NCBI GenBank assembly: GCA_964472615.1
Contig: CAYYLN010000002.1
Coordinates: forward strand, 1 to 24,396
Length of the DNA stretch: 24,396 bases
DNA from: an uncultured Methanosarcinales archaeon
GTDB lineage: Archaea; Nanobdellota; Nanobdellia; Woesearchaeales; ARS49
Direction: 5' to 3'
Of this stretch, positions 887 through 21,437 are shown in pieces (the stretch's first letter is position 1; each line of letters starts with the position of its first letter). Both the position numbers and the translations under genes were made by a program. The notes beneath the pieces were generated by a model. That model did no database searches and was not told where the DNA came from. It was given only the letters and a program-made list of their open reading frames with translations.

Positions 887-1664
887 TTAAACTTTTACTT
901 GCTTCCACGCGCAGAACGCACACGTTTCAAGTGCCTTCGGTGGGTCCTTCCTATCCAGCACGAGCTTTGCTTCTTTCAGCAAGGTCATGGCACGCGCAGG
1001 ATTTGTCTTGAGCTCGATAACGGTCGTGTCAAACGGAATGCCTTTATGCAGTTCTCCTGGCTGCGGATAATAATAGACCAGGAACGCGCGCTTGTCTGTC
1101 GGGAAGTTATTCTTCTCAAGCAAGAACTTGTAAATATCCATCTGCACTTTATAGCTCTCATGTGTTTCTTTTGGCGCGCTTGCTCGCGTCTTATGGTCGA
1201 GCGGTGCGAACACGCCTTTCTTCAACTCAAGACAATCATCAAGCAATCCCCTGAGCAGCAATCCAGTCCCCGCATCTTCATATGTCGGAAACCCCTTGCG
1301 CGGAAACCACTGGCTTCAGCCTGTTGGAGGAAGCGCGGGGTTTCCGAACATGCTCAAGAACCACTTGCCATTTGGCAGCACATTGCTTATTATTCACGCC
1401 ACTTGCTTTAGCAAGTGGTTCTTGACACTTGAGCGTCTTTGGCCGAGGAAACGCCAGCTTTCCTGGCACCTTTCCCTTCCACAACGATGGCATCTCCCCT
1501 TTCTCGCGAAACGCATCACAATATTTCTTCAGCACCGAATCAAGCTCAATCGCAATACTCGCCATCGGCCCCGCAGGCCTGCCGATACCTTTCACCATCT
1601 TCATCCAGAAACAGCGAGGGCGTGCACGGGGGAGATGGGGGGTGGAGGGGGTTACGTGGGTCGT
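887..1664 (-). pseudogene. PD-(D/E)XK (RecB/Cas4-like) nuclease, ~210 aa, interrupted by a 145-bp insertion
   Basis: N-half (PRCFWMKMVKGIGRP...PRPKTLK, 1664-1428) and C-half (YEDAGTGLLLRGLLDDCLE...LDHKT...QMDIY...CAFC, 1282-887) join in frame when 1282..1426 is removed. D...DxK, QxxxY and terminal CxxC match this family. The start codon is unclear (ACG at 1664 where ATG is expected). Confidence 0.8.
1282..1426 (+). mobile_element. 145-bp non-autonomous IS200/IS605-type hairpin element (MITE/PATE-like), copy 1
   Basis: 143/145 identical to 8934..9078. Preceded by TTCAT (1277-1281), ends TTGAC, no target duplication. Subterminal hairpins GGC-TTCA-GCC and CCACTTGC-TTTA-GCAAGTGG. The boundary is ambiguous by 1 nt (1283..1427 gives the same empty site). 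Confidence 0.8.
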
Positions 1665-2283
1665 TTTTTCCGTCTGCGGCGATGGGTGCGTGCAGCTCCG
1701 TATAAATGCTCTGATTGTGCGGTATTTGCCGGTGAAATATCTTTTGTAATTCGTGATACCCCATCTTTTCGTCACACATTCCGCGTCGTGCACACAACCG
1801 TCTCGTATACGCATCGACGACAAAAATCGGTTTGCGTCCTGCATATAAGAGCATTGAATCTGCTGTCTCGGGGCCGATGCCTTTCAGCGACAACAATTCC
1901 TCACGCAGCGGTTCAAGTTTTTTCTTGAACATCGTCGAGAAATTGTTGTGCTGTTTCAAAACGTGTTGTGCGAAAAGCTGCAGGCGTTCAGCTTTCTGAC
2001 GAAAATATCCTGATGAACGGATGAGTTGTTCGAGATTTTCTCGACGGAGATTCTCGAGTCTTCGTAATGACATCGTGTCAGCCGCAAACAACGTGTCAAG
2101 CGCTTTCTCGACGTTCTTCCATGACGTATTCTGCGTCAGGATTGCTCCCACACAAATCTCTAATTGATCCGCCTCAGTGAGTTTTCTCGTCTTGTTCGAC
2201 GGATGATACCCCTGGCTTCTCGTCGGCCACCAGCCTTGCGGGCCGTGCTTTGCGAGCAATTCATCGTAGAGCTTCTTGAGCAT
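1546..2283 (-). CDS. Endonuclease III-related HhH-GPD DNA glycosylase (no Fe-S cluster); true 3' end probably near 1660
   Basis: HGPQGWWP, ICVGAILTQNTSWKNVEKA, SSGYFRQKAERL, HhH LLSLKGIGPETADSMLLYA, VVDAY. ATG at 2283 lies ~26 nt from a TATA box. The C-terminal tail after ELHA looks corrupted and runs into the next gene. Confidence 0.88.
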   Translation of the reverse strand: MLKKLYDELLAKHGPQGWWPTRSQGYHPSNKTRKLTEADQLEICVGAILTQNTSWKNVEKALDTLFAADTMSLRRLENLRRENLEQLIRSSGYFRQKAERLQLFAQHVLKQHNNFSTMFKKKLEPLREELLSLKGIGPETADSMLLYAGRKPIFVVDAYTRRLCARRGMCDEKMGYHELQKIFHRQIPHNQSIYTELHAPIAADGKNDPRNPLHPPSPPCTPSLFLDEDGERYRQACGADGEYCD

Positions 2284-2305
2284 GATAGAGAAATATGTCC
2301 GAAGA

Positions 2306-2313
2306 CTTATAAG
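2306..2313. promoter_or_regulatory. Palindromic TATA box CTTATAAG shared by divergent genes
   Basis: Centre (2309.5) is 26.5 nt from both the minus-strand ATG at 2283 and the in-frame plus-strand GTG at 2336. Confidence 0.6.
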
Positions 2314-2335
2314 GATTTGCGTGTTCGGCAGCGTC

Positions 2336-5300
2336 GTGGGGGACGCAATCATCAGCGAAGTTCTGATCAAGAATAACCGGGCACTCATCACGCTCAAGGA
2401 CATCGGCAGCGTGTATTTCAAACATAGCCATCAGTTCCCATCAAAGATCCTCAAGCCGCCGATCAAGAAAGAAATCCTTGACGAATTCTTGAGCTACAAA
2501 CTCGAGCACTTCAACCGCATCCCGCAATTCAACATCATCCAGCTCACTGAGCAGGTTGATTTCCCTGAGCGATTAAAAGAAGATCCCGCCTTGTACAAGA
2601 CATTCAAGAAACGTTTTGTGACCGGGCATTACACGCCGCAATTGCGCTGGCGTTCTGGCGTCCCCTGGCGGCATGCAGACATCAAACAACCGCTCCTTGA
2701 ACTCCTGCGAGAAAAAAAGCAGCGCGAACACATCCTGCAGGAAACGGTCACATATGCGATACAAACCCTGCAGCAGTCTTCGCAGGCAAAGAAACGCAGG
2801 ATCACGCGGCACGAGGAATACATCGCAGAACACTGGAACACGCTCACCATGCTGGATGATCAAGGGCTTATGGAAAAGCAGCAGGCAGTGGAGCACGAAC
2901 GTTTCGCGCTCGAACAACGCGTCAAAGCCCTGCTTGGAGAAGGAACCGTCGAGGTCAATCCTGTCGACAAAAGCTTTGACATCGTGCTCGACAACATCCG
3001 CACCTACATCCACCCCAAACAATCCCTGACCGCAGACGAGATCTTCACCGGCAGACTGTACATCATGGACATCGAGAAGCCGTTGTTCGACACGCCTGAA
3101 GACGAGGTTTCGTGGATTGCGGCAATCCTCGTCGACAAAGGAAAAGTTCTGAAAAAGACCATCAAGACCCTGCGCGACCCAGGCATCGGCATGCTCCGCG
3201 ACTGGACCATCGAGCGCTACGCGACTGAACGCGACCTGGTGAAATCAGTCGAGCATGACATTATCTCCCCTGACCATGGAAGGACCGTCGATGCGGTCAT
3301 CGCGTACAACGCGCCGTATGACCTTGAGAACACTGAGGCAGCGGTCGACAGCGACTGGAAAGTTGGAGAACGGGCAGAAGACCCGAAAGTCGAAGTCGGC
3401 ATTGATTTCTTCAGGAAAATCAGGATTCCCGGCAGATTGGTCCTTGATCCCTTGCGTTGGGCGAGAATACGCTACAAGGACTTGCCCAACAGGAAACTCG
3501 AGCTCATCCTCGCAGAAGCCCATGGCATCGAACACGCCAAGGCATTGAATTACGACCAGCTCGCAGAACTCGAACGCGTCGCCAAGACCTGCGATGTCAA
3601 GCATCTCCATCCCGATGCCGCACAGATCCTCGCATCATGGTCTGGGCATCCCCTTGACGACCTCAGCCGCATCCCGCGCCTTGACCAATTGTGCGCACGG
3701 CTCGAGGCCCAGTATGTGAGCACTGACGTCGATGAACTCTTCCGCATGGTCTTCAGCCAGTGGGCACGGGACCACGTCGAGGATGCAGTCTGGCTGAGCG
3801 ACGCATACGGCGTCGAACTCTCACGGCTCCTGCACTCGGTTAACACGATCAATGACACGCAGGAACGCAACTACTGGACTTTTGTCGGCACGTATCGCGA
3901 CATCATCTACCAGAAGACCACGACGATGAAGCGACTGCAGCAAAAAGCACGTACGCATCTTGCAGAACGCATTAAAGCAAAACTGTTGCCCGAAGGCACG
4001 CGGTACGCAGGCCACCACGGTGATGTCGCAAAAGTCTACCTGCCCATCGGCCTCTGGCTTGCAAATCTCATCACCGGACATAACCCAGAGACCCAACAGA
4101 CGCGCTTCCCTGAAGTGCTCAAACTCAAGGACTATGCCCTCCAGCACCGCGCTGACAAGCGCAGGTTCTTCACGCTCTGCCAATACCTTGACGCGTTCGC
4201 AAGCTACATCCTTGTCGACTTTGGCCTGTACAATCTCGCAGTTACCGACTACCATGACATGCTCGAACGCCACCAGGTCGATCGCAAGGCATTCGAGCGC
4301 TACTCGCACGGCAGGCCCACGCATCCCGAGCTCGTGCAGAAGCTCGCTGAGCACAAGATCCCTGAGCAGGAATTCTGCGAATTCCGGATGCAGTACCGCA
4401 GCCTGCTCCAAGAAGAATCAGAATGGGCAATCAAGCATTTTGACCGCGGCACGTTCACCACCAAAGGCATCGCGAAGCATCCTGATATCGCCGCAGAATT
4501 CTGCGTCCAGCACCAGCTCCCCATCACCACGCTCGAAGAGCTGCTCAGGATTGCGGGCAAGGAATTCAAAGGCGAGCAGGACATCGATCCCTCATTGATG
4601 AAGCTCTCCGAGAACCACTGGCAGCAGCTCGTCGACGTGTACGAGAAAGTCCGCAAGCGCAAGCGCAAGATCTTCGGCCAGTACAATGTCGACGCTGACG
4701 AGATCAAGATGACGCTCAACCAGTGTCTTGCTGACTTCCAGGCATTCTGCAATAGGAATGGCTATTGGATCCTGCACGCGCAAGGGGGATTTGTTTATCT
4801 TGTCCACGGCGACCGCGGCGTGCTCAAGGCGCCTGACACCCCCGTGATCCTCGTGGATGAGATCGACCGAGCATATCTCTGTCCGAACTCCGCAGACACC
4901 AAGAACCATCCTGCATGGCAGCCGAGAGAGCACAAGATCTACTACCGCAAGCACAACTACTACGAAGGCCTCAAGGTCACCAACAGGCCCACGCACAATC
5001 TCGCCCTATTCGAGATGGAATGGTATCAGAAGATCATTGACCGCATTCTCGATCGCGATTATGAGGCAGCACTCTTCCACGCCAACGAATGCCTGGACAT
5101 CCTCAGGGGAATCCTTGATGAGAAACAGGCGGACATCGCGTACTGGGAACGACAAGCATTGCCGCCGCAGGCAGCCATCGACACCACTACCTATGATGCC
5201 CATCTCACGATCCCCAAACGCGACTTCCTCTGGCTCTCGAAGCGCAGGAACATGTATCGCGCGTACGAGCACGGCGAGCTCGTGCATTTCCTGACTGAGG

Positions 5301-5572
5301 AAGCCCATGCCCATGGCGCAAAACTCCAGACTGACGAGCGCACTGGCAGGAAATACTTTGAGGAGCCACTGCGCAAGGACAGCGAAAACGTGCGGCGCGT
5401 CCATATCATGCCTGTTGAGCAATTCCAGCCTGACGTCAGCATGTACTACGATCGCATCAAGGAACGCGTCAAGGACCTCATCGAGCCCTTGTGCGGCGAG
5501 AAAAGCAAGGCATTTGTGCAGCGATCGCAGGATGACGTCACTGCATTCTTGAGAACAGACCCGTTCGTGTGA
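2336..5572 (+). CDS. Highly diverged family B DNA polymerase-like protein (~1078 aa): DEDDy 3'-5' exonuclease motifs intact, polymerase catalytic motifs not recognisable
   Basis: ExoI MDIEK (3065-3079), ExoII YNAPYD (3305-3322), GRLVLDPLRWAR...LPNRKLE, ExoIII YVSTD (3713-3727). GYWILHAQGGFVYL (~4760-4800) sits where YxDTDS is expected. C-terminal PDVSMYYDRIKERVKDLIEPL resembles the PolB thumb end. Start GTG 2336 inferred from TATA spacing; alternative ATG 2282. Confidence 0.6.
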   Translation: MGDAIISEVLIKNNRALITLKDIGSVYFKHSHQFPSKILKPPIKKEILDEFLSYKLEHFNRIPQFNIIQLTEQVDFPERLKEDPALYKTFKKRFVTGHYTPQLRWRSGVPWRHADIKQPLLELLREKKQREHILQETVTYAIQTLQQSSQAKKRRITRHEEYIAEHWNTLTMLDDQGLMEKQQAVEHERFALEQRVKALLGEGTVEVNPVDKSFDIVLDNIRTYIHPKQSLTADEIFTGRLYIMDIEKPLFDTPEDEVSWIAAILVDKGKVLKKTIKTLRDPGIGMLRDWTIERYATERDLVKSVEHDIISPDHGRTVDAVIAYNAPYDLENTEAAVDSDWKVGERAEDPKVEVGIDFFRKIRIPGRLVLDPLRWARIRYKDLPNRKLELILAEAHGIEHAKALNYDQLAELERVAKTCDVKHLHPDAAQILASWSGHPLDDLSRIPRLDQLCARLEAQYVSTDVDELFRMVFSQWARDHVEDAVWLSDAYGVELSRLLHSVNTINDTQERNYWTFVGTYRDIIYQKTTTMKRLQQKARTHLAERIKAKLLPEGTRYAGHHGDVAKVYLPIGLWLANLITGHNPETQQTRFPEVLKLKDYALQHRADKRRFFTLCQYLDAFASYILVDFGLYNLAVTDYHDMLERHQVDRKAFERYSHGRPTHPELVQKLAEHKIPEQEFCEFRMQYRSLLQEESEWAIKHFDRGTFTTKGIAKHPDIAAEFCVQHQLPITTLEELLRIAGKEFKGEQDIDPSLMKLSENHWQQLVDVYEKVRKRKRKIFGQYNVDADEIKMTLNQCLADFQAFCNRNGYWILHAQGGFVYLVHGDRGVLKAPDTPVILVDEIDRAYLCPNSADTKNHPAWQPREHKIYYRKHNYYEGLKVTNRPTHNLALFEMEWYQKIIDRILDRDYEAALFHANECLDILRGILDEKQADIAYWERQALPPQAAIDTTTYDAHLTIPKRDFLWLSKRRNMYRAYEHGELVHFLTEEAHAHGAKLQTDERTGRKYFEEPLRKDSENVRRVHIMPVEQFQPDVSMYYDRIKERVKDLIEPLCGEKSKAFVQRSQDDVTAFLRTDPFV

Positions 5573-5577
5573 TTGGT

Positions 5578-6132
5578 TTATCGAGAATAATATGTGCTGA
5601 TCCCTGCCAGGATTTCTCCGTCAGTCAGTTTCAAGTCGTGGCCGATGGCGATGAGATCGCGACAATTCATGCACGTGCCGTGCGGCTCAGCACCCTGATG
5701 CATGCGTCGATAGCTCTCGATGACCGATGCTTCAGCGATAGGCTGGCGAGGTGCGGTGAGGATGCGTGTGATGATGCCTGTGCTCATGTTCTGCTGGCGG
5801 AGTGCGAACATGCGAATCGCGAGTGTGCTGTTTTCCCGATCTGTTGGGATCCCATAGTGGCGCAAGGCCTGCGCAACACTTGAGACATAATCGTCAGGCA
5901 TGTCGTCTTTGTCGAATGCAATCGTATCGGTAAAAATACGCTTGGCCGCACGTTGGTCAAAATGCTTGGACTGGTACAGCGCATGCAGCTGGTAATTGGT
6001 GCTGCCGTCTGCAAAGCTCCCTGTTTTCTTGCACTCGACGGTGATCGTTGCCTCATCGAGCGTGCCCTTCCAGCAGTCGAGCGCGATCTCTTTCAGAAAA
6101 CCGTCCAATGATTGATGTTTGGTGTTGAGCAT
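5578..6132 (-). CDS. Hypothetical protein (184 aa)
   Basis: ATG start, TTATATATAA (6151-6160) ~24 nt upstream, fills the gap between two genes. HGTCMNC near the C-terminus is a possible metal site. Confidence 0.7.
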   Translation of the reverse strand: MLNTKHQSLDGFLKEIALDCWKGTLDEATITVECKKTGSFADGSTNYQLHALYQSKHFDQRAAKRIFTDTIAFDKDDMPDDYVSSVAQALRHYGIPTDRENSTLAIRMFALRQQNMSTGIITRILTAPRQPIAEASVIESYRRMHQGAEPHGTCMNCRDLIAIGHDLKLTDGEILAGISTYYSR

Positions 6133-6191: not shown

Positions 6192-6575
6192 TCAAACTAG
6201 GATCGCGTTGACGGTGCCATCCTGGCCAGGCCTCGACGTGATCCTTGCCTTTCCTTTTTCGGTCTCGATGATGGCCCCGCGTACCATGATGTTCCGACGG
6301 ACATAATGGCGGTTCGCTGTGCACTCCACGACCGCCTTCACCTTCGCCGGCGAGAATGTCTTGGTCTTCGGGTCAAAGAGGTTCACGTGATCAGCCGTGA
6401 AGACGCGTGCCTTGATGCCGTTGAACTTCGTCGGATTGACGGCAATCCTGGTCTTGGCGTCGATACGCGTGGCTGTCGGGTGATTGCCAACCTCAAAGCG
6501 CCTCTTTCCCCGTCGCTGGATGTGGCGTCCGCCGCTCGGCGTCCGGCCCACGCCCCCTCGATGCACGATAACCAT
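6192..6575 (-). CDS. rps8e: 30S ribosomal protein S8e (127 aa)
   Basis: GRTPSGGR...RGKRRFEVG, ANRHYVRRNIMVRGAIIETEKGKARITSRPGQDGTVNAILV. ATG 6575 with TTTATAAG ~26 nt upstream. Confidence 0.96.
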   Translation of the reverse strand: MVIVHRGGVGRTPSGGRHIQRRGKRRFEVGNHPTATRIDAKTRIAVNPTKFNGIKARVFTADHVNLFDPKTKTFSPAKVKAVVECTANRHYVRRNIMVRGAIIETEKGKARITSRPGQDGTVNAILV

Positions 6576-6657
6576 GGCTCGAGGAGAACGCAGCCCGCTT
6601 ATAAAGCTTTCTTGTACCACGGAAAGAAATAAAAAGGGCGCTGCTCCCCAAATACAC

Positions 6658-7995
6658 ATGCGCACGGCGATGTTCCTCACACTGATCCTGCTCCTCAGCA
6701 CAACTGCGTCTGCCTTCTCGACGACGAGCATCGTGCAGGGCACTGAGCCGGTCGTGTACGGCGACATTGTCGCATTCCTCACGCTTGAGGACTTTATCGA
6801 TCAAGACTTGAACAGCGACGGCGACCAGGCAGACCGCGTCCTCCAGTATTATGACACCCGCACTGAGAAAGTCACGAACACCGGCAAAGAAGCACGGCAG
6901 CCAGCCCTCTTCGGCAAGATTCTTGCCTTTACCGATGACACGCGCATCCTCCGGCTTTACACTATTGACGACAACAAAGTCATCGAGACAAACGTGCGGG
7001 GCGCATCGCCCTCGCTGTATGCGAAAACCGTCGCGCTCACGACTGCTGAAGAGGACATCGGCATCGACCTCACTGGCGATGAAGACACGCGTGACACCGT
7101 GATCCGGCAGTATGACACGGGCAGTGAGGTCGCTACCAACACCAACGCCGTCGGCGAAAACCCGGTCTTACTCGACGATTTCCTCATCTTCACGACACGC
7201 GAGGACGCCCTCGAGGCAGACCTCAACAATGACGGCGACCGTGACGACACCATCATCCGCGCCATGGATATCGACACCAACCAGATCGTGAACACCCGCG
7301 TCACCGGCACGAATCCTGTCGGCTACAAACACGAGACCATCATCATCACCGACGACAAGAAGTTCTGGACCCTCAACATCCCGAACAGCGAGAAACAACC
7401 GACCGGTGTCTCCGGCAATGATCCGTCGCTCTATCAGGACATGCTCGTCTACGAACGCGATGGCACGCTGATGCTCTATCGTCTCAGCACCGGCGTCGAG
7501 AAATCCCTCGGCATCATGGGCAAGTATCCTGCGCTCTTCGACCATCCCCTTGGCTTTGTGGCCCACAACAAGACCATCGCGGTCCCCAAAGGAGAGGATC
7601 CGGACAATGACTATGTTCCTGATTTCGCAGACAACTGCCCAGACCAGGCGAACGAAAACCAAGCAGATGCAGACAAGGACGGCCTTGGCGACGTATGTGA
7701 TGACACGCCTCTTCCTGAAGAAAAGAAGCCCGAACCTGTCGCTCCACAGGCGACTGCACACGTCACCGAGCCGCCCATCGAGCCCGTGTTCACGACGCAA
7801 GCCGAGCCAGAAACACCTCCTGCGCCAGTTGAACGCAAAGCCATCCCTGACACACTCGCCTTGCAGAAAGAAAAGGACGACCGCGAGCCCACGTACTGGT
7901 TCCTCATCGCGGTCGGGCTTATGGTCATCGGCGTCCTGCTGTATTTCTTCATGCCGCGCTGGCTCCACAAACGCAGAAAAAGCTTTGGGTTTTAA
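6658..7995 (+). CDS. Cell-surface protein (445 aa): signal peptide, three DxNxDGD Ca-binding repeats, thrombospondin type-3-like repeat, Pro/Glu/Thr linker, C-terminal TM anchor
   Basis: MRTAMFLTLILLLSTTASA; DLNSDGDQADRVLQYYD / DLTGDEDTRDTVIRQYD / DLNNDGDRDDTIIRAMD; DPDNDYVPDFADNCPDQANENQADADKDGLGDVCD; WFLIAVGLMVIGVLLYFFM followed by HKRRK. Confidence 0.85.
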   Translation: MRTAMFLTLILLLSTTASAFSTTSIVQGTEPVVYGDIVAFLTLEDFIDQDLNSDGDQADRVLQYYDTRTEKVTNTGKEARQPALFGKILAFTDDTRILRLYTIDDNKVIETNVRGASPSLYAKTVALTTAEEDIGIDLTGDEDTRDTVIRQYDTGSEVATNTNAVGENPVLLDDFLIFTTREDALEADLNNDGDRDDTIIRAMDIDTNQIVNTRVTGTNPVGYKHETIIITDDKKFWTLNIPNSEKQPTGVSGNDPSLYQDMLVYERDGTLMLYRLSTGVEKSLGIMGKYPALFDHPLGFVAHNKTIAVPKGEDPDNDYVPDFADNCPDQANENQADADKDGLGDVCDDTPLPEEKKPEPVAPQATAHVTEPPIEPVFTTQAEPETPPAPVERKAIPDTLALQKEKDDREPTYWFLIAVGLMVIGVLLYFFMPRWLHKRRKSFGF

Positions 7996-8933
7996 CGGGC
8001 GCACAAATACGCATGCAGTATTCGGAGACCATCCTCGAGCGATGTGTGCGGCTTCCAGCCCAAGAGCTTCTCTGCCTTGCTCACGTCCGCATACGTCTGT
8101 GAGACATCGCCCTCTCGCCGCGGCTGGGGATTTCTGATAGCATTCTTACCCACGATTTTTTCAAGCGTCTCAATGAATACGTTGAGCTCCACCGGGCTTG
8201 AGTTACCAAGATTGATGATCTCAAACCGCAGATCAGCGTCCGTAGCAGCAAGCACTCCTTCCACGATGTCGTCGATGAACGTGTAATCCCTGCGGCTCGC
8301 GCCATCGCCGTACACCTCAATCGGTTCGCTACGCATAATGCTCCGCATGAATTTGTACGGCGCCATGTCCGGCCGGCCGCGAGGACCATACACGGTGAAG
8401 AACCGCAAGCACGTCGCAGGCAAACCGAATTTTGCATAGGTCCAACACCAGAGTTCTCCCAAGCGCTTTGTCACACCATAGGGGCTGATTTGCGTGTCCG
8501 CAGGGTCAGTCTCGCGGAATGGAACTTCAGCGCGTTCACCATAGACTGAAGAGCTCGAAGCAAAGATGAAATTCTTGACGTTCGACTTCTGGGCAAGATC
8601 AAGCAGAATGGCGGTTCCCGTGACATTCCCATCATAATAGAGCTTGGGATTCTTGAGCGAAGGACGCACTCCTGCGCGCGCAGCAAGATGGATGACTTTG
8701 TCCGGTTGTTCTTTCGTGAAGGTGCATTGCATCCCGGCTTCATGCGTAATATCCGCCTCGCAGAGATCAAACGACCTATGGCCTACTATTCCTGCAATGT
8801 TGTCACGCTTGATGCGAGGATCATAATAGTCATTGAAGTTGTCGACCCCGACAACGCAATCGCCGCGCTTCAGCAACGCCTCACAGACGTGGCTGCCGAT
8901 GAATCCCGCAGCACCAGTCACGAGGTATTTCAT
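7992..8933 (-). CDS. NAD-dependent NDP-sugar epimerase/dehydratase (UDP-glucuronate 4-epimerase/WcaG-like SDR)
   Basis: VTGAAGFIGSH, HLAARAGVRPS, ASSSSVYG, YGVTK, LRFFTVYGPRGRPDMA, RDYTFIDDIVEG. Confidence 0.93.
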   Translation of the reverse strand: MKYLVTGAAGFIGSHVCEALLKRGDCVVGVDNFNDYYDPRIKRDNIAGIVGHRSFDLCEADITHEAGMQCTFTKEQPDKVIHLAARAGVRPSLKNPKLYYDGNVTGTAILLDLAQKSNVKNFIFASSSSVYGERAEVPFRETDPADTQISPYGVTKRLGELWCWTYAKFGLPATCLRFFTVYGPRGRPDMAPYKFMRSIMRSEPIEVYGDGASRRDYTFIDDIVEGVLAATDADLRFEIINLGNSSPVELNVFIETLEKIVGKNAIRNPQPRREGDVSQTYADVSKAEKLLGWKPHTSLEDGLRILHAYLCAR

Positions 8934-9078
8934 GTGTCGGAAACCCCTTGCGCGGAAACCACTGGCTTCAGCCTGTTGGAGGAAGCGCGGGGTTTCCGAA
9001 CATGCTCAAGAACCACTTGCCATTTGGCAGCACATTGCTTATTATTCATGCCACTTGCTTTAGCAAGTGGTTCTTGAC
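8934..9078 (+). mobile_element. 145-bp non-autonomous IS200/IS605-type hairpin element, copy 2
   Basis: Differs from 1282..1426 only at the first base and at 9049 (T vs C). Preceded by TTCAT (8929-8933, includes the epimerase start codon), ends TTGAC. Confidence 0.8.
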
Positions 9079-9100
9079 ACATGCGCAAGAATATCTGATT

Positions 9101-9109
9101 CTTATAAAG
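9101..9109 (-). promoter_or_regulatory. Probable TATA box of the epimerase gene, displaced by the insertion
   Basis: TTTATAAG on the minus strand lies ~27 nt from ATG 8933 once the 145-bp element is removed, the same spacing as other promoters in the window. Confidence 0.55.
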
Positions 9110-9227
9110 ATGCGCCATCGCTACGGAAGCTTTATAAACTTCCTGCGGATTTCGCCGAGTAACTTTTGGGGCAGCGCCAACTGCAGTCGGCTGGTCCCAA
9201 AATGCTTACATTTTGGGGTGATTAACC

Positions 9228-9449
9228 TTGGAATCAAGACCATTAGATGCGCTCAATCGCGCTCGGGATAAGAAAGTCATGGTGGAGCTGAAGAACGGCA
9301 AGCAGTTCATCGGCTTGCTCCGCGCATTCGACATCCACATCAATTGCGTGCTCGATGACACTGAAGAACGCGTGGAAGGCAACGTGACGAGAAAGCTCGG
9401 CACCACATTCCTCCGCGGAGACATGATCGTCCTCATCTCACCGCAGTAA
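9228..9449 (+). CDS. lsm: Sm-like (Lsm/SmAP1) RNA-binding protein (73 aa)
   Basis: RPLDAL...VELKNG...GLLRAFDIHINCVL (Sm1) and TFLRGDMIVLISP (Sm2). TTG start after GGGGTGA. Adjacent to rpL37e as is usual in archaea. Confidence 0.95.
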   Translation: MESRPLDALNRARDKKVMVELKNGKQFIGLLRAFDIHINCVLDDTEERVEGNVTRKLGTTFLRGDMIVLISPQ

Positions 9450-9514
9450 CCTCACGAGTTAACTAATTGACTAGGACCTAGTTAACTAGGAAACGAACAA
9501 ACAAGGTAACGAAA

Positions 9515-9676
9515 TTGAAAGGAACCTATTCGATGGGCAAGAGGAGCCGCGGCAGGTCGCACATCATGTGCAGACGCTGCGGCAGGCATAGTTACAATGC
9601 CGCGAAAAAGGTATGCGCGAGCTGCGGCTTCGGCAAGTCTGCCAAGCTGCGCAGCTACAAGTGGCAGACGTTCTAG
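9515..9676 (+). CDS. rpl37e: 50S ribosomal protein L37e (53 aa; not in the ORF track)
   Basis: Translated by hand: (TTG)[52 protein letters not shown]. CxxC...CxxC zinc finger, AAGGT upstream. Confidence 0.95.
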
Positions 9677-9972
9677 ATGTCGAAAACTGCTCTTGACGTA
9701 CCCTGCGGACTTTAGTCCGCCAGAAAGGACGAGCAGTTTTCGAGCATGACTTGACCAACGCTGCTGCGTTGTCATCTCGACAAGCAAAGCTTGTCGACGT
9801 CTCGCCAATCATTAGATTGGCGATGAACTTGAATAACTTTGTTATTCAAGTAACTTGAGAAACGCGGTTTCTCAAGTTCGTCGGAAATCAGCGGATTTCC
9901 GAGACTCAACAACCACGAGCAAATTTTGATGGCGTGTAGTCACGCCACTCGCTTTAGCGAGTGGTTGTTGAC
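9677..9972 (+). mobile_element. 296-bp composite hairpin element related to the 145-bp element, with an internal array of six hairpins
   Basis: Left module TGTCGAAAAC...GCGGAC-TTTA-GTCCGC...GTTTTCGAGCATG; right module TCAACAACCAC...CCACTCGC-TTTA-GCGAGTGGTTGTTGAC. Ends covary with the 145-bp copies. ATGTC occurs at 9677 and 9973. Confidence 0.6.
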
Positions 9973-10194: not shown

Positions 10195-10278
10195 GCGGCT
10201 GTGCCGGAGTGGCCAAACGGGGCAGGCTTAGGACCTGCTGGCTTAGTGCCTTCCAAGGTTCGAATCCTTGCGGCCGCA
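10195..10278 (+). tRNA. trnL: tRNA-Leu (anticodon TAG), CCA not encoded
   Basis: Acceptor GCGGCTG/CGGCCGC, D-loop AGTGGCCAAA, anticodon arm GCAGG-CTTAGGA-CCTGC, long variable arm, T arm CAAGG-TTCGAAT-CCTTG. TATATATAA at ~10158-10166. Confidence 0.97.
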
Positions 10279-10811: not shown

Positions 10812-13364
10812 ATGAAAGCAATACAAGCGATTAAGAAGATGGTTGCTCTTGGCATGGGCGTTACCATGGTGGGTGCAACAATCTTTGGTGCTTCGGCAGT
10901 TCAATTGTCTGACTGGCCTGCGCCATTTGTCGTTGATGGAACGCCTGCTTCTAACCTGGCCGTTGTGGTCGGTGATGCAGCAGACGCTATTGACGTCGTC
11001 GGCATGGGCGACATTGTCGCAGCACTGCAAGGAGCTTCCGTGGTCAAGACGACCACAGGTGGTGGCGGTGGCACAGGCGTCGTTGTTGAAGGCGACGCTG
11101 TGGAAATCGGCAGCACTTCGGACTTGCTCGAGATCAACGAAACAATTGGTAACGTTCGTGAAACCCTCACTGAAGTCGACCTTGACATGCTGAAAGGCGG
11201 TCAGATCGTGACTGATGAGGGTTCGACCGAGTACAACCAGTACTTGAGATTCGTAGGAACATCCGGTGCCACTACGACTGGTGAAGCATACCCACCGAAC
11301 GGAGCAGTCTTGTTTGCAGAGGACGAGCGAGACCGTGTGGGACACTACCTTCGCTGGAACGGCGGAAACCGAACCTTTGAATGGGAGCTTGAGTTCGAAG
11401 AAGGACTTGAGTCTGAAACCCAAGGCGATGACCTGGTCGACCTCGAGGACGAGGACATTATCATGCTGGGCCAGCCCTTTGTGATTGTTGACACAGACCT
11501 CCGAAACGCAACCATGGAATTGACCATCGAGCTGATGGGCGGAGCCATCTCTGCAATCCTTGGCGAAAACGACAAGGAAACGTATGTCGTTGACGGCAAG
11601 GAATACGAAGTCGAGGTTCTCGTGATTTCCGAAACCGCCAAGGACGGAGAAGGAGCCGTAAAGTTCCGCGTCAACGGCGAAATCACTGACGAACTCGAAG
11701 ACGGAGAGACTGACGTGCTCGCAGACGGAACCCAAATCGGTATCCGCGACATCCTTGCCACGGGTAAGGACATCCAAAAGAGCATCGTGCAGTTCTACAT
11801 TGGCGCGTACAAGGTGGAATTCAACGACGATGCTGACGAAACCGCCTTTAGGAGAGGAGGAACAGAAGTGAATGAAGAGACCATCGAGGACTCGCAAGTG
11901 CAGCTTGTTGCTGCATTCACTGATGCGCCGACAAACCGGAAGGTAGAGATCAGCAGCATCATCTACCGGCTGGATGCTGATGCGGTCTTGGGAGATGTTT
12001 ACATCCCGCCAGGAAGCGGCTTGCGTGAACAGCTCGACGAACCAGAAGGCATGTTGACGCCGTTCTGGGACATCCGCTACGAAGGATTGATGGACACCGG
12101 CGTGACCATCGTCCGTGTTGATGCAGCAGGTGATGACGAGTATGACCTTGAATTCACCAACCAGGAAGGCATCTTTTACGACGTGCCGCTGGCAAGCAAC
12201 GAAGGCACCTTCTACAAGTTCGGTGACGACGATGACGACCTGTGGTTCATTGAAAGCGACAGGCACATTATTTCAGATGACGACTTTTTCGTCCTGAGCG
12301 ACTGCCTTGTCGCTGCGAACGACAACACGTGTTTCACCCACGTCCTCAGGTTTGACAGCATTGATGCTGCAAACAGGGGATTGACCTTCACCGACCTTGG
12401 AACAGGCACGCGTGAAGTCACCTATACTGCTGCTGGAGCAGCGAACCTGGTTGTGGGCGGACTCACGTACGCAGTCAACGTAAACACTGCCACAAACACG
12501 TCCATCTCTGTCGACCTGAACGCTGACGGCACCCGAGACAACACCTCGAAAGTCTTCATCGGCATCCAGGGCGAGGGTATCATTGACCTTGCGGTCAATG
12601 GAACGTTTAACGGCAGTCAGTATGGTCTCTTCCACCAGCTGGCAAACGTGACGCCGTTCAACATCACGCGAATTGATGGAGACGTGTTCGTCATGAACTT
12701 GTCGACCATGACCAAGGAATTCGACGCGGCAACAACGCGTGAAAACATTATCTGGGAAATCATAAGGCGAACCAACAATCAGATTGGCATCCAGCTAATC
12801 AGCGGACCGAACGGAGGCCTCTTTGGCCCATTCGACCTCGAAGAGAACGAGGACCTTGAACAGGCATTGTCCGTCTATGGTGTCTTCCTGGAGCTGTTCG
12901 ACCCAACCACCAGCACCGAGGCAGAAGACCTCACGATTGAGTACCCGCTCTCGCAGCGTGGCGCTCGTGTGTTCGTGACCGGTGGCCTTGTCAGCACGAC
13001 GGCAGTCGAAAGCGGCACGAATGAACGTGTCCAAGCATTGCCGGTTGGCGTAAGCAAGCTGGCGAGCGAAGTGGCTGACGTCACGCAGTTCAACGCCATT
13101 GTTGTTGGCGGTCCTTGCGCGAACCCCATTGCAGCACAGCTCATGGGCAACCCTGAGCCCTGCTGGGAATCAATCAGCAAGGCAGTGGTCAAGGTGTACG
13201 AGCACTCCAACGGTAACGTTGCGATGCTCGTGGCCGGCCGAAGTGGTCAAGACACGCGACGTGCAGCCCGTGCGGTTGCGACTGGCCAGATTGCCAGCGT
13301 GAACAGCAAGGAAGCTGAAGTCAGTGGCACGACCATGACTGATATCATGGTGAAGGCGGTTTAA
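10812..13364 (+). CDS. S-layer protein (850 aa; Methanococcales-type N- and C-terminal S-layer domains)
   Basis: MKAIQAIKKMVALGMGVTMVGATIFGASA signal; LSDWPAPFV, VVVGDAADAIDVVG; C-terminal NAIVVGGPCANPIAAQL...LVAGRSGQDTRRAA. Very acidic, several N-x-S/T sequons, SD GGAGGTG at 10797-10803. Confidence 0.88.
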   Translation: MKAIQAIKKMVALGMGVTMVGATIFGASAVQLSDWPAPFVVDGTPASNLAVVVGDAADAIDVVGMGDIVAALQGASVVKTTTGGGGGTGVVVEGDAVEIGSTSDLLEINETIGNVRETLTEVDLDMLKGGQIVTDEGSTEYNQYLRFVGTSGATTTGEAYPPNGAVLFAEDERDRVGHYLRWNGGNRTFEWELEFEEGLESETQGDDLVDLEDEDIIMLGQPFVIVDTDLRNATMELTIELMGGAISAILGENDKETYVVDGKEYEVEVLVISETAKDGEGAVKFRVNGEITDELEDGETDVLADGTQIGIRDILATGKDIQKSIVQFYIGAYKVEFNDDADETAFRRGGTEVNEETIEDSQVQLVAAFTDAPTNRKVEISSIIYRLDADAVLGDVYIPPGSGLREQLDEPEGMLTPFWDIRYEGLMDTGVTIVRVDAAGDDEYDLEFTNQEGIFYDVPLASNEGTFYKFGDDDDDLWFIESDRHIISDDDFFVLSDCLVAANDNTCFTHVLRFDSIDAANRGLTFTDLGTGTREVTYTAAGAANLVVGGLTYAVNVNTATNTSISVDLNADGTRDNTSKVFIGIQGEGIIDLAVNGTFNGSQYGLFHQLANVTPFNITRIDGDVFVMNLSTMTKEFDAATTRENIIWEIIRRTNNQIGIQLISGPNGGLFGPFDLEENEDLEQALSVYGVFLELFDPTTSTEAEDLTIEYPLSQRGARVFVTGGLVSTTAVESGTNERVQALPVGVSKLASEVADVTQFNAIVVGGPCANPIAAQLMGNPEPCWESISKAVVKVYEHSNGNVAMLVAGRSGQDTRRAARAVATGQIASVNSKEAEVSGTTMTDIMVKAV

Positions 13365-17776: not shown

Positions 17777-19853
17777 ATGCCTAAAATCATCCAGATACGG
17801 AAAAAAGAAGGTTCTCTCGTGCCTTTTGAAGCCCCAAAGCTCGAAAAATCGCTCGAAAACGCCCTGATCTCTGCCCGGCACAAGAACCCTAAGATCGCCA
17901 AAAAACTTGCTGGCATGGTCATTAACATCCTTGAAAAACACATTCCCAAAGGCATCGTGTCTACGGTCAAGGATGTTCAGGATGTCATCATCGAGGTCCT
18001 GCAGAAGAACAAGCTCCCCCAGATCGCCAAGGCGTATGTCGAACACCGCAAGATTCACAAGGAAGCAGTCGGCTTCAGGACCGTGTACGGTGTCCGTGAT
18101 GACCTGGGCATGAGCACCAACGCTATCATTGTCCTCGCAAAACGCTACCTGCTCAAAAACGATCAAGGCGTAATCATTGAAACCCCTGCGCGGCTATTCC
18201 GCAGGGTTGCAAAAGCGCTCGCCTCAGTCGAGGCAGTGTACGGCAAGAGCGTCAGAAAGGCCGAAGAAGAATTCTATGATCTCATGGCAAACCTCTCCTT
18301 CCTTCCCAACACACCAACACTCATGAACGCAGGCACGCCTCTTGGGCAGCTCTCTGCCTGTTTTGTACTCCCTGTCGAAGACGATTTGCGACAGATCTTC
18401 CACACGCTCGAGAACCAGATGCTCATCCACCAAAGCGGCGGCGGCACAGGATTTTCCTTTGGTCGCCTAAGGCCCCAAGGCGACCTTGTGCGCTCAACGC
18501 AAGGCGTTGCTTCCGGCCCGGTAAGCTTCATGACCATTTATGACAAGGCAACCGAGGTCATCAAGCAGGGCGGCAAGCGCCGGGGGGCCAACATGGGCAT
18601 CCTGCCTGTCGAGCACCCCGACATCGAGGAATTCATCAACGCCAAGCGCAAGCCAGGAATGCTCGAGAACTTCAACGTCTCAGTCTCGATCTCAGACAAG
18701 TTCATGGACGCAGTTGCCAAGGACAAGGAATTCGAACTCATCAACCCGAGAAACAAACAAGCGGTGAAAAAAGTCAAGGCAAGAGGCCTGTGGAACCAGA
18801 TGATCCAATCCGCATGGGAATGCGGCGATCCAGGAATTGTATTCATCGATGAGATCAATCGCAGACAGCCCACGCCCGAAATCGGCATCATCGAGAGCAC
18901 AAATCCCTGCGGCGAAATCCCGTTGCTCCCCTACGAGCCGTGCAACCTTGGCAGCATCAACCTCGCCAAAATGGTCAAGAACGGCAAGATCAACTGGGAA
19001 AAGCTCAAGCACGTGGCCAGAACCGCAACGCACTTCCTCGACAATGTCATCGACGCAAACCGTTGGCCCCTGCCTGAGATTGAACAGATCGCCAAGGCAA
19101 ACCGCAAGATCGGCCTTGGCGTCATGGGCTGGGCAGAATGCCTTGCCCGCTGCGGTATCCGCTACGACTCAGACAAAGCCATTGAGCTCGCGGAAAAAGT
19201 CGCGAAATTCATCCAGGACGAAAGCCGGAAAAAATCAGCCGAGCTCGGCCAGGAACGTGGCAATTTCCCCAATCTGCCCAGAAGCGTCTACGCCAAAAAA
19301 TACAAGACCCTGCGCAATGCGACATGCACGACAGTCGCCCCAACCGGCACGATCAGCATCATCGCAAACGCGACTTCAGGCATCGAGCCCTTCTTTGCGG
19401 TCGCGTTTGTGAGGGACGTCATGGGCGGTACCAAACTCCTCGAGACCAACCCGTATTTCGAACAGCTTGCCAAGGAGCGGGGCTTTTCCAGCAAACAACT
19501 CATGGTCAAGATTGCAAAACAGGGCGGCATCCAGAAAACCCCTGGCATTCCCGCTGACGTGAAGCGTATCTTTGTGACGAGCTTTGACATCAAGCCCGAA
19601 TGGCATGTCAAACACCAAGCCGCCTGGCGACAACGCGGTCAGCAAGACCGTGAATCTGCCTGTGCATGCCAAGCCGCAGGACATTGACAAGATTTACCAG
19701 CTCGCCCACAAGCTCAAATGCAAAGGCATCACGATATTCCGTTACGGCAGCAAGAGAGAACAAGTCCTGTACGTTGGCAAGCAGGCGGCAGAGCACATCA
19801 CCGTCGAGGAAGAATTCGCAGGCGGCTGCCCATCAGGAGTGTGTCCGTTCTGA
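17777..19853 (+). pseudogene. nrdJ: Class II (AdoCbl-dependent) ribonucleotide reductase with N-terminal ATP cone; frameshifted at 19628/19629 (real lesion or assembly error)
   Basis: ATP cone (IRKKEGSLVPFEAPKL), PNTPTLMNAG, LSACFVLP, GGGTG, GKRRGANM, TNPCGEIPL, CNLGSINL, APTGTISI. The C-terminus DNAVSKTVNLP...KGITIFR...GGCPSGVCPF* is in another frame (ORF 19584..19853). Confidence 0.9.
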
Positions 19854-19854
19854 C

Positions 19855-20379
19855 ATGGCAAAGACAAAAGCACCGGTCTATCTCTGGACTGGCCAAGGCT
19901 GGGGAAAGACAACGTCGTCATTAGGAGTTGCCCTGCGCGCGATGGGTCACGGCTACAAGGTCGTCATCGTGCAATTCATGAAAGGCTGGGGTGATGTCGT
20001 GGGAGAATTCAAGATCCGCACCAAGCTCGCGCCCTTGTACGAGATCCACCAATTCGGCCGCAAGGAATGGATCAACCTCAAGAACCCCGCAAAAGTCGAC
20101 AAAGACCTTGCCAAGAAAGCACTTGCATTCGCCAAGAAAAAGGCAAAAGAGAAGCCGTTCCTGCTTGTCCTCGACGAGGTCAATCTTGCCTGTGCCATCG
20201 GGCTGTTGAAGACTGATGATCTTATCGCGTTCCTTGACACGATCCCGCAAGAAGTTCACATCTACCTGACCGGCCGTTATGCACCACCTGCCCTTCTTTG
20301 GAGAGCAGATTACGTCAATGAAATCGTCATGATCAAAGGACCCAAGAAGATCCGCGGCGAGAAAGGCATTGATTACTGA
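19855..20379 (+). CDS. cobO: Cob(I)alamin adenosyltransferase, CobA/CobO/BtuR type (174 aa)
   Basis: YLWTGQGWGKTTSSLGVALRAMGHG, VVIVQFMKG, LVLDEV, LTGRYAP, ADYVNEI. ATG 1 nt after the nrdJ stop. Confidence 0.92.
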   Translation: MAKTKAPVYLWTGQGWGKTTSSLGVALRAMGHGYKVVIVQFMKGWGDVVGEFKIRTKLAPLYEIHQFGRKEWINLKNPAKVDKDLAKKALAFAKKKAKEKPFLLVLDEVNLACAIGLLKTDDLIAFLDTIPQEVHIYLTGRYAPPALLWRADYVNEIVMIKGPKKIRGEKGIDY

Positions 20380-21146
20380 TGGCATCGTACAGGATTTCTT
20401 CGCTCGATGAACGTCGGGGCTTTTATGCGCACGAATTCAATATTCGCGTTCTCGGAGAATGGTTTGCTGGTTCGCTCAGCAGAGTGCCGCAGTTCTTTGC
20501 TGTCGATTTCGGCACGGAAACAAAGCTCAGCACTGACTCAAACAAGATCGGCAAGATCATCGTGCTCCAACCACATCTCTCACTCGGCCAATTGCGCGAA
20601 AAACTCTTCCTGTACGCTCCTGAAGACGCTTATTATGACACGCGCATTTACAAGAACGTCAACGACTGCTTTACCTGCCCAGAACATCCTGGCTTTTGTG
20701 CTGATTGCCCTGAACTCGCTGGCCAAGAACTCGTCTTTGACCTTGATCCAGAGAACATTGATTGCCCCCACTGCGGCAAGAAACAATTCCCGCACTTCTG
20801 CAATTACTGCCTCGGCCTCAGCCTGCAGGCAGGCGCCAAGCTCAGCGATGCCTTGCGTGACATGGGATATCATGCAATACGCTTGGTCTATTCCGGCCGT
20901 GGCTGCCATGTGCACGTCACTGATCCCCACGCCATGAACCTCAGCACTGAAGAACGCGTTCACCTTGCCCGTGATCTCAGACGATTCCCGATGGATTCCT
21001 GGGTCACCACAACCAAGCGACTCATCCGACTGCCGTATTCCTTGCATGCGTTGATCTCACGGATCGCGATGCCGATCACCGAAAATGATGTCCAACGATT
21101 TGATGCAGAAAATGATGCGCGTGTGCTGCCGCGCTTCTTGGGATAA
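20379..21146 (+). CDS. priS: Archaeo-eukaryotic primase (PriS-like) with two Cys clusters (255 aa)
   Basis: Motif I ELVFDLD, motif II YSGRGCHVHV, motif III DSWVT...RLIRLPYSLH; CFTC...CADC and CPHC...CNYC. TGATG overlap with cobO. Confidence 0.85.
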   Translation: MASYRISSLDERRGFYAHEFNIRVLGEWFAGSLSRVPQFFAVDFGTETKLSTDSNKIGKIIVLQPHLSLGQLREKLFLYAPEDAYYDTRIYKNVNDCFTCPEHPGFCADCPELAGQELVFDLDPENIDCPHCGKKQFPHFCNYCLGLSLQAGAKLSDALRDMGYHAIRLVYSGRGCHVHVTDPHAMNLSTEERVHLARDLRRFPMDSWVTTTKRLIRLPYSLHALISRIAMPITENDVQRFDAENDARVLPRFLG

Positions 21147-21338
21147 TTATTCTTCCTCTTCCTTTTCTTCGTGGTGCTCTTCGTCTTCCTCGTCCTTCTG
21201 TTCAACTTCCTTGATCAGTTCGTCGACTTTTTCAGCGCATTCCTCTGCATGCTTTTCAGTCGTGTGCTCGATCTGCTCGAATTCCTTCTGGAGCTCGGGC
21301 TCAGGATGCTTTTTTTTCTTCTTGATGTCTTCCCCCAT
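21147..21338 (-). CDS. Small highly charged protein (63 aa, basic N-terminus, Glu/Asp/His-rich tail)
   Basis: MGEDIKKKKKHPEPELQKEFEQ...EEDEEHHEEKEEEE; ATG 21338 is ~28 nt from TTTATATA (21363-21370). Confidence 0.6.
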   Translation of the reverse strand: MGEDIKKKKKHPEPELQKEFEQIEHTTEKHAEECAEKVDELIKEVEQKDEEDEEHHEEKEEEE

Positions 21339-21437
21339 CGGGTCGGAAACACCCGTACAGAGTATATAAACATTGGTATTCCCCTCAGTCTGTGGGCATT
21401 GCCAAGTTTTATTAACGACGCAGAATTGGCAACACGC

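Follow-up and report, generated by a model that had tools for sequence, protein, structure and literature searches.

A Woesearchaeota Family of PolB Derivatives with a Conserved Exonuclease Site and Replaced Polymerase Motifs

Introduction

Family-B DNA polymerases (PolBs) are the best-studied replicases. Whether such an enzyme can give up synthesis and keep its proofreading exonuclease is a question raised by a 1078-residue protein of an uncultured archaeon, which the Genome Taxonomy Database (GTDB) places in the Woesearchaeales. The gene lies at 2336..5572 on the + strand of contig CAYYLN010000002.1 (assembly GCA_964472615.1), positions 1 to 24,396 of which were analyzed as a single stretch (the window). 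A sequence-only reading of the window had described the product as a repurposed polymerase scaffold that combines an apparently active exonuclease with a missing polymerase active site, and had suggested that it might represent an undescribed DPANN family.

In PolB2 and bacterial G2, in the C-terminal half of Pol epsilon, in UL8, and in the exonuclease domains of Pol alpha and Pol zeta, the exonuclease has been lost, either alone or together with the polymerase (PMC7544198, PMC12926913). In the literature that we searched, we found no description of a PolB group in which the exonuclease is intact and the polymerase degenerate. We conclude here that the window protein belongs to an unannotated branch of the family-B DNA polymerases that is specific to Woesearchaeota. 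We describe the conservation of its exonuclease residues, the replacement of its polymerase motifs, and a possible link to the sliding clamp, and we weigh what the protein might do.

Results and Discussion

Recognition of the Family

On its own, the window protein matched nothing in Pfam (E ≤ 1), PHROGs, NCBIfam, or PADLOC, nor any PDB sequence in a phmmer search. A word-indexed homologue search returned 10 proteins (32–100% identity), to which its profile version added none, and a 10-sequence profile had no match in the PDB. When a profile was run exhaustively against 1.84 billion cluster representatives, 179 of them passed E ≤ 1e-3 and 97 of these passed E ≤ 1e-30. The resulting family alignment holds 102 full-length members that are 17–70% identical to the window protein, the closest being P0002 of locus L003 (70%); P and L numbers are our labels for proteins and loci, and conservation counts below refer to this alignment. 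Homology to PolBs surfaced only when the 102-sequence profile and hhalign were used. A hidden Markov model (HMM) built from the 102 sequences had 46 matches in the PDB, of which 45 are family-B polymerases, among them D.Tok PolB (5.3e-12), Pol delta (3.8e-7), and Pol II (5e-6). When 47 distant members were compared with Pfam, eight weakly matched DNA_pol_B_exo1 (PF03104; best 2.8e-5) and none matched DNA_pol_B (PF00136).

The members with a named source are all hypothetical proteins of Candidatus Woesearchaeota; one is labelled just "archaeon." A search for related loci with a narrow alignment found only two GTDB loci, both from Woesearchaeota. The idea of an undescribed DPANN family fits these results, as the family is without a model in Pfam, NCBIfam, or PHROGs and its named members are Woesearchaeota hypotheticals throughout. 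Some 180 sequence clusters that are now called hypothetical can be flagged for annotation.

The DEDDy Residues Are Conserved across the Family

A PolB-type DEDDy 3'-5' exonuclease domain occupies residues ~241–491 (3056..3808; all features of the gene are on the + strand), as judged from hhalign, from the matches of the 102-member HMM in the PDB, and from the Pfam matches of the distant members. Residues are numbered from the GTG at 2336; the database protein P0001 begins five codons earlier. In hhalign, residues 230–501 of the family aligned with residues 128–347 of KOD PolB (95% probability, E 3.6e-8) with Exo I–III in register, and the comparison with E. coli Pol II gave a similar result (95.4%, E 1.7e-8). 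The KOD sequence was checked against PDB entry 1wns (equal length, 1757 bits), and the Pol II sequence is a translation from NC_000913.

Exo I reads DIE (residues 245–247, 3068..3076) and places D245 and E247 in line with FDIET of KOD and IDIET of Pol II. Exo II reads YNAPYD (residues 324–329, 3305..3322), with N325 and D329, and is aligned to YNGDNFD and WNVVQFD of the same two enzymes. Exo III reads YVSTD (residues 460–464, 3713..3727), with Y460 and D464 in line with YSMED and YNLKD. The segment at 3431..3502, which comprises GRLVLD (residues 366–371, from nucleotide 3431) and LPNRKLE (residues 383–389, from nucleotide 3482), is aligned to GRIHFDL and LPTYTLE of KOD. The DEDDy residues and the GRxxxD...LPxxKLE segment are thus all present in the order in which they had first been read, and they align to the corresponding elements of known PolBs.

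Only four columns are invariant in all 102 members, and these are D245, E247, Y460, and D464. Close behind are D371 (100/102), D329 (98/102), N325 (91/102), and K387 (88/102). By alignment, D245, E247, D329, Y460, and D464 correspond to exactly the DEDDy catalytic set, and D371 corresponds to the aspartate of the GRxxxD element of PolB exonuclease domains. Because D245, E247, Y460, and D464 remain the sole invariant columns down to 17% identity, the set of motifs is more than a chance resemblance. The proposal that the exonuclease is intact, which had been made from a single sequence, therefore holds at the level of the family.

The C-Terminal Two-Thirds Is a PolB Polymerase Domain

An AlphaFold2 (AF2) model of the whole protein (pLDDT 77.4, pTM 0.69) was compared with known structures by Foldseek. 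The top 50 PDB matches were all PolBs, with a best E-value of 4.6e-7 and ~1000–1300 aligned columns; they include Pol II (3k59, the top match) and the ASFV, Tgo, Pab, KOD, and Pol alpha enzymes. The BFVD library of viral structures likewise returned family-B polymerases for the full model. When residues 492–1078 were modelled alone (pLDDT 82.7, pTM 0.70), the top 34 PDB matches were family-B polymerases, followed by herpesvirus helicase-primase chains.

The C-terminal family profile is collinear with residues 347–772 of KOD. Its hhalign score was 32.6 (P-value 0.0017); for 60 shuffled KOD sequences the mean score was 14.3 and the highest 19.7. The alignment pairs GxxxNV-KVY-P with GLWENIVYLDF at motif A, KRKRKIFGQYN with KILANSYYGYYG at motif B, and ILHAQGGFVY with VIYSDTDGFF at motif C, and it continues through GLKVTNRP and GLEIVRRD, the thumb helices, and QDDVTAFL and QVGLSAWL. 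The motif C segment of Pol II, VIYGDTDSTF, aligns independently to the same hairpin. We conclude that the C-terminal two-thirds of the protein is a PolB polymerase domain and not an unrelated fusion, because its model retrieves PolBs, its profile aligns collinearly with KOD, and Pol II aligns to the motif C hairpin. The result that the sequence-only reading had named as fatal to its proposal, a C-terminal part with no PolB fold, was not obtained. A DnaQ-like exonuclease fusion, or a stand-alone exonuclease of the DnaQ or RNase D type, was also considered and is ruled out, as the exonuclease is one domain within a complete PolB chassis.

The order of domains is an N-terminal domain, the DEDDy exonuclease, and the palm, fingers, and thumb. 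The fingers region (residues ~594–807, 4115..4756, from AF2 and hhalign) contains a helical insertion and ends in the degenerate motif B equivalent. In the AF2 model, ~210 residues between the counterparts of motifs A and C are helical, in agreement with the long helical insertions that had been noted. Beyond motif C, the segment KIYY...EGLKVTNRP...FEM (4931..5020) stands out in the column statistics by the conservation of K867, Y870, and E893. It resembles the KxY primer-binding motif and the GLEIVRRD strand of PolBs; the strand is matched in hhalign (GLEIVRRD to GLKVTNRP), and the KxY assignment is putative. A thumb-like C-terminal domain (5021..5569) is supported by hhalign, by the Foldseek matches of the C-terminal model, and by a sub-threshold HMMER stretch on the thumb helices of KOD and D.Tok (618–672).

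The Catalytic Polymerase Motifs Are Replaced

A motif scan of the 1078-residue protein found no SLYP, NSxYG, or DTD, in agreement with the previously noted absence of DxxSLYP, KxxxNSxYG, and YxDTDS. The alignments show what stands in their place. The motif A-equivalent strand is GHHGDVAKVYLPIGLWL (4010..4060), which has the family form GLYENVxKVYIPxG and is collinear in hhalign with GLWENIVYLDFRSLYPS of KOD; its G559 is found in 99/102 members. The position of the motif A aspartate is taken by P570 in the gapped alignment or by Y568 in an ungapped one, and across the family this neighbourhood consists of Y/F, I/L/V, and P, with no conservation of acidic residues. At the motif B equivalent, KRKRKIFGQYN, K774 stands opposite K487 in the KILANSYYG motif of KOD, so that the basic residue is kept and the N, S, and G are lost.

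Motif C corresponds to a beta-hairpin, YWILHAQGGFVYLVH (4763..4807), that was identified by hhalign to KOD and independently to Pol II. It contains HAQGGF (residues 814–819, from nucleotide 4775), in which Q816 and G818 stand at both aspartate positions of YxDTDS. Among the 102 members, the first of these positions is occupied mainly by E (28), Q (23), D (12), K (11), and N (9), and the second by N (17), D (17), P (16), S (10), and G (7). No subgroup combines acidic residues at motif A with acidic residues at both motif C positions, and none conserves an acidic residue at any one of these sites. Elsewhere in the polymerase half, the best acidic columns reach just 64–84/102, the highest being E893, which is acidic in 84/102. 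The profile alignments to KOD and Pol II thus bear out the loss of the polymerase carboxylates, and with motifs A, B, and C replaced, the polymerase is predicted to be dead.

The palm has not decayed with its catalytic residues. The mean frequency of the top residue is 0.37–0.38 in the palm versus 0.42 in the exonuclease domain, which suggests that the palm retains a structural or DNA-binding role. Since the palm is almost as conserved as the exonuclease, the chassis appears to be selected for a noncatalytic task, most simply the binding of DNA.

C-Terminal Tails Resemble Clamp-Binding Motifs

Residues 1065–1072 (5528..5551), which end six residues before the C terminus, read QDDVTAFL. This sequence satisfies the pattern of a PCNA-interacting protein (PIP) box, Qxx[LIVM]xx[FYW][FYWL], and is aligned by hhalign to QVGLSAWL of KOD. 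The link to the clamp is a new observation, which goes beyond the sequence-only reading. A strict PIP expression alone matched 6/102 members. Enrichment was seen once QxxLF and QLxLxL were also allowed and windows from the interior of the members served as the control: a clamp-binding-like motif was present in the last 20 residues of 42/102 members, against 1.6 expected. The tails are of the QxxLF type in 27 members, of the QLxLxL/F type in 12, and canonical PIP boxes in 4; examples are ...EQLSLF, ...QGKLF, ...QLVLGF, and QTDILDFF. A PCNA gene (L016, 5106–5843, − strand) lies immediately upstream of, and divergent from, the gene for the distant member P0116, whose own sequence ends in ...ATQGKLF. 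From these tails and from the adjacency to PCNA, we infer that members of the family may be recruited by PCNA.

Many of the tails (for example, those of P0038, P0040, P0082, and P0105) read QLSLF, QLELF, or QLVLGF. Tails of the QLSLF type have the form that binds the bacterial beta clamp (E. coli Pol II ends in GQLGLF) and not that of the classical archaeal PIP box, though the organisms use PCNA.

Predicted Function and Alternatives

What does such a protein do? On balance, we think that it is probably a 3'-5' exonuclease that is built on a PolB chassis, has a dead polymerase site, and is tethered to PCNA. The earlier description of a repurposed polymerase scaffold agrees with this proposal, in that the PolB fold is kept, the DEDDy site is conserved, and other residues occupy the aspartate positions of motifs A and C. 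The motif QDDVTAFL would tether the protein to PCNA, and the thumb and palm would grip the primer-template duplex as they do in a PolB in editing mode. Because extension would be impossible, the 3' end would be delivered solely to the exonuclease site, where it would be trimmed. As a stand-alone, clamp-recruited 3'-5' exonuclease, the protein might act in trans as the proofreader of an editing-deficient polymerase or primase. It might instead take part in repair and clean up 3' ends that are mismatched, damaged, or blocked; base-excision repair is one possible setting, since the gene appears to share its promoter with that of an HhH-GPD glycosylase.

A more far-reaching version of this proposal, which we put forward tentatively and would not ourselves bet on, is that Woesearchaeota have split synthesis from proofreading, such that a dedicated PCNA-tethered exonuclease derived from a killed PolB acts in trans with an editing-deficient replicase or primase-polymerase. 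If this were true, the protein would play in archaea the part that the epsilon subunit plays in bacteria. It would also be the first family-B member that works by its exonuclease alone, and these reduced genomes would depend on it as an essential factor in replication or repair that defines the lineage. A tblastn search with KOD and Pol II found no canonical PolB across the fetched loci, which amount to only ~250 kb.

Several observations weigh against a polymerase-dead, clamp-tethered exonuclease. PolB2 was likewise predicted to be inactive and was later found to be active (PMC7544198, PMC12926913). The residue assignments at motifs A and B are uncertain by 1–2 residues, the hhalign probability for the polymerase half is low (15.7%), and the Foldseek E-values of the C-terminal model are weak (4.5e-3 and worse). 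The confidence of the AF2 model is lowest at Exo I and Exo II, where pLDDT falls below 50 (P0001 residues 251–253 and 330–367). In the PIP-like motif of the window protein, the hydrophobic position is a V, and six more residues follow before the chain ends; moreover, 60/102 members have no recognizable clamp motif. Finally, adjacency to the glycosylase gene is missing in several lineages, including that of the closest homologue (L003).

The precedent of PolB2 leads to the first alternative, that the protein is still a DNA polymerase and works through a noncanonical site formed by other carboxylates of the palm and thumb, such as E893, D841, or, in some subgroups, an E or D of motif C. The well-conserved palm, the acidic residue at E893 in most members, and the E or D found by some members at one motif C position (E28/D12 at the first, D17 at the second) are all compatible with this idea, as is the occurrence of a core chromosomal gene with a clamp-binding tail. 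Besides PolB2, whose activity was wrongly predicted to be missing, primer-independent PolBs that lack one motif C aspartate offer a precedent. Against it, the acidic residues never come together at motif A and both motif C positions in any subgroup, and the polymerase half has no invariant acidic column to set beside the conserved carboxylates of the exonuclease. At the critical positions of the window protein stand Q816, G818, and P570 or Y568, and the motif B residues N, S, and Y-G, which bind dNTPs, have been lost. We therefore consider a surviving polymerase activity unlikely.

The second alternative accepts that the polymerase is dead and extends the loss to the exonuclease. The protein would then be a noncatalytic replisome scaffold, comparable to the C-terminal module of Pol epsilon or to UL8, in which the exonuclease residues are kept for DNA-end binding or fold stability. 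Inactivated PolB modules are known as scaffolds (PMC7544198), the herpes simplex virus helicase-primase chains appear among the Foldseek matches of the C-terminal model, and the large helical insertions could serve as platforms for interaction. The known scaffold-type derivatives of PolB, however, have all lost the exonuclease carboxylates as well, whereas here the five DEDDy residues are the most conserved at divergence down to 17% identity, which is the signature of catalysis and not of fold maintenance. A purely structural role is thus improbable, to about the same degree as a surviving polymerase.

A third alternative is that the substrate is RNA, and that the protein is a 3'-5' exonuclease similar to the DEDDy enzymes RNase D and Rrp6, with a role in ribosome biogenesis or RNA processing. 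The recurrent neighbours would suit such a role, as genes for ribosomal protein S8e and an LSm protein are found downstream (in the window, L001, L003, L007, L011, and L014) and genes for the RIO1 kinase and a KH protein of the KRR1/Pno1 type upstream (in L006, L012, and L015). In very compact genomes, however, the neighbours are mostly informational genes in any case. The exonuclease domain is specifically of the PolB type, the whole chassis for binding duplex DNA has been kept, and the clamp-binding tail and the adjacency to PCNA point to DNA. We regard an RNA substrate as quite improbable.

The remaining option, a nuclease of antivirus defence or a gene of a mobile element, was raised by the sequence-only reading, and repurposed polymerase-like proteins do occur in defence systems; there is no PADLOC match, a search of IMG/VR found no relatives on viral contigs, and the gene is present in one copy per locus within chromosomal housekeeping synteny (on contigs of up to 548 kb, for members from 70% to ~19% identity), so that this option is very improbable and we set it aside.

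Comparison with Known PolB Derivatives

The nearest relatives by sequence profile are the PolBs of Thermococcales (KOD, Tgo, Pfu, and D.Tok), which gave the best matches (5e-12). They share with the window family the fold, the order of domains, Exo I–III, and the GRxxxD and LPxxxLE elements of the exonuclease. In the polymerase half the similarity extends to a remnant of motif A (GLYENV versus GLWENI), the motif C hairpin, GLEIVRRD, the thumb helices, and a C-terminal PIP-like motif. What sets the window family apart is that other residues stand in for the motif A and C aspartates and for the motif B N, S, and G; the window protein also carries ~300 extra residues, which are accounted for by the N-terminal helical hairpin and the enlarged helical fingers.

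PolB2 (Dpo2) and the bacterial G2 group are similar to the window family in being divergent cellular PolB paralogues with degenerate polymerase motifs. B2 and G2 lack Exo III, show no conservation of Exo I, and retain one of the motif C aspartates (PMC7544198; PMC12926913). The window family has the opposite pattern, with an intact exonuclease and both motif C aspartates gone; the contrast with PolB2 that had been drawn from the sequence is thus consistent with the published account (PMC7544198). As PolB2 was predicted to be dead and later proved active, it matters here whether the loss of polymerase activity is real. The C-terminal half of Pol epsilon and UL8 also keep a PolB fold without the catalytic residues of a polymerase; they have lost the exonuclease site, whereas the window family keeps its DEDDy residues. 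An analysis by Kazlauskas and Venclovas in 2014 reportedly described UL8 as an inactivated PolB module without an exonuclease site.

The closest parallel in logic comes from outside family B. A subset of PolX enzymes has a dead polymerase and an active PHP 3'-5' exonuclease; in this subset the nuclease is conserved above the polymerase, and a role in the processing of repair intermediates has been proposed (PMC12926913). The differences are that PolX belongs to family X, that its nuclease is a PHP domain and not of the DEDDy (DnaQ-like) fold, and that the subset is found in bacteria and not in DPANN archaea. The function that we propose may also be compared with that of the bacterial DnaQ (epsilon), since each would be a DEDD-type 3'-5' exonuclease that acts in trans at a clamp-bound primer end. 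Epsilon, however, is a small, single-domain DEDDh protein bound to Pol III alpha, whereas the window protein is a DEDDy protein of 1078 residues with DNA-binding domains of its own.

E. coli Pol II is the top Foldseek match (3k59), and its GQLGLF terminus resembles the QLxLF and QxxLF tails of the family. A Pol II-like group, B7, has been reported in Woesearchaeota and Pacearchaeota (PMC7544198). The polymerase motifs of both Pol II and B7 are intact, unlike those of the window family. We considered an origin from Pol II or B7 and did not adopt it: hhalign does not discriminate (1.7e-8 versus 3.2e-8), and HMMER favours the Thermococcales-type PolB (5e-12 versus 5e-6). For these reasons, we claim no particular PolB group as the source of the family.

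If our proposal is correct, the reversed pattern of loss would show that selection can favour a PolB chassis solely for its use as a nuclease that handles DNA ends. The family would then supply a missing component for models of replication and repair in DPANN archaea, whose genomes are rich in unannotated core genes, and it would offer a natural PolB in "permanent editing mode" for structural and biotechnological study.

Gene Start, Promoter, and N-Terminal Domain

According to the list of open reading frames and their translations, the + strand frame is open over 2276–5572, with the stop codon at 5570–5572. The start at GTG 2336, which had been assumed previously, is the best supported. It yields the N terminus MGDAIISEVL, which fits the MGE(P/T)xISEVL of the homologues (MGEPIISEVL and MGETVISEVL), and a CTTATAAG box conserved among orthologous loci is found 26.5 nt away from it. 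The whole-length Foldseek matches agree with a gene of this extent.

The box (2306–2313) is palindromic and TATA-like, and it lies in the 52 bp spacer (2284..2335) that separates the gene from its divergent neighbour, which encodes the glycosylase. Its TTATAA core (2307–2312) is midway, 26.5 nt from each of the two start codons, and the symmetric layout recurs in L009 (27.5/27.5 nt) and L007 (24.5/25.5 nt). Because these spacings fit the distance from TATA box to start codon in archaea, they suggest that the two genes share a bidirectional promoter and are transcribed into leaderless mRNAs. At L009 (~7968–8001), the start of the database protein P0008 seems to have been placed too far downstream: from an in-frame GTG ahead of it (GTGGGGGAACG...), the protein regains the MGE...LSE N terminus of the family, and the TATA spacing is again the conserved one.

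The N-terminal domain covers residues 1–240 (2336..3055) and includes, in the AF2 secondary structure, a helical hairpin at residues ~118–200 (2687–2935). Extra length had been noted here, correctly, as an extension of ~240 residues, but this figure is overstated. Canonical PolBs have ~140–155 residues before Exo I, and hhalign places residues 128 of KOD and 149 of Pol II opposite residues 230–238; the true excess is ~90–100 residues, most of which is the helical hairpin of the AF2 model.

Genomic Surroundings

The divergent neighbour (1546..2283, − strand) encodes an HhH-GPD DNA glycosylase similar to MagIII and endonuclease III (Pfam HhH-GPD, 3.2e-19). Its nearest NCBIfam model is that of a 3-methyladenine glycosylase (1.4e-30, under the cutoff), and its start at ATG 2283 was set by a 72%-identical orthologue in L001. 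The glycosylase gene adjoins the PolB-like gene in the window, L001, L007, and L009 and lies within 2 kb of it in L014; we take it to be a conserved neighbour and, at most, a candidate partner. In L003 its place is taken by a divergent gene (9074–9898, − strand) for a 274-residue protein with a weak GIY-YIG match (E 5e-4), and in L011 by a weak SprT-like gene; L006, L012, and L015 have the RIO1 and Pno1-type KH genes there. The TATA box ahead of the PolB-like gene is unchanged in L003.

Across the loci, the neighbours include genes for HhH-GPD, DnaG-like Toprim, topoisomerase VI, NucS (Endo_dU), and the weak SprT-like and GIY-YIG proteins. This conserved chromosomal setting among genes of DNA metabolism speaks for the function proposed above. 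The NucS/Endo_dU mismatch-endonuclease gene (L015, 10151–10723, + strand) lies 1.2 kb downstream of the gene for P0035.

In the window, a gene for a hypothetical protein of 184 residues (5578–6132, − strand) is convergent with the PolB-like gene and sits between it and the gene for ribosomal protein S8e (6192–6782, − strand). It has no family match, and L001 has a weakly conserved counterpart in the corresponding place (22% identity, E 9e-13). A tRNA-Leu gene (10195–10278, + strand) is followed by a gene for an S-layer-like protein of 850 residues (Pfam S_layer_C; 10812–13364, + strand). L001, L011, and L014, which are related loci, have this S-layer gene as well, which shows that the synteny is extended.

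Further along (17777–21146, + strand), genes for a ribonucleotide reductase with an ATP-cone, an ATP:corrinoid adenosyltransferase, and a PriS-like primase small subunit stand in a row; the adenosyltransferase fits a B12-dependent (class II) reductase. Directly after the short PriS-like primase gene (20379–21146) comes an open reading frame of 843 residues (21171–23702, + strand), which probably begins downstream of the listed GTG. It has no match in Pfam, NCBIfam, PADLOC, or the PDB, and it is possibly another unannotated replication-associated protein.

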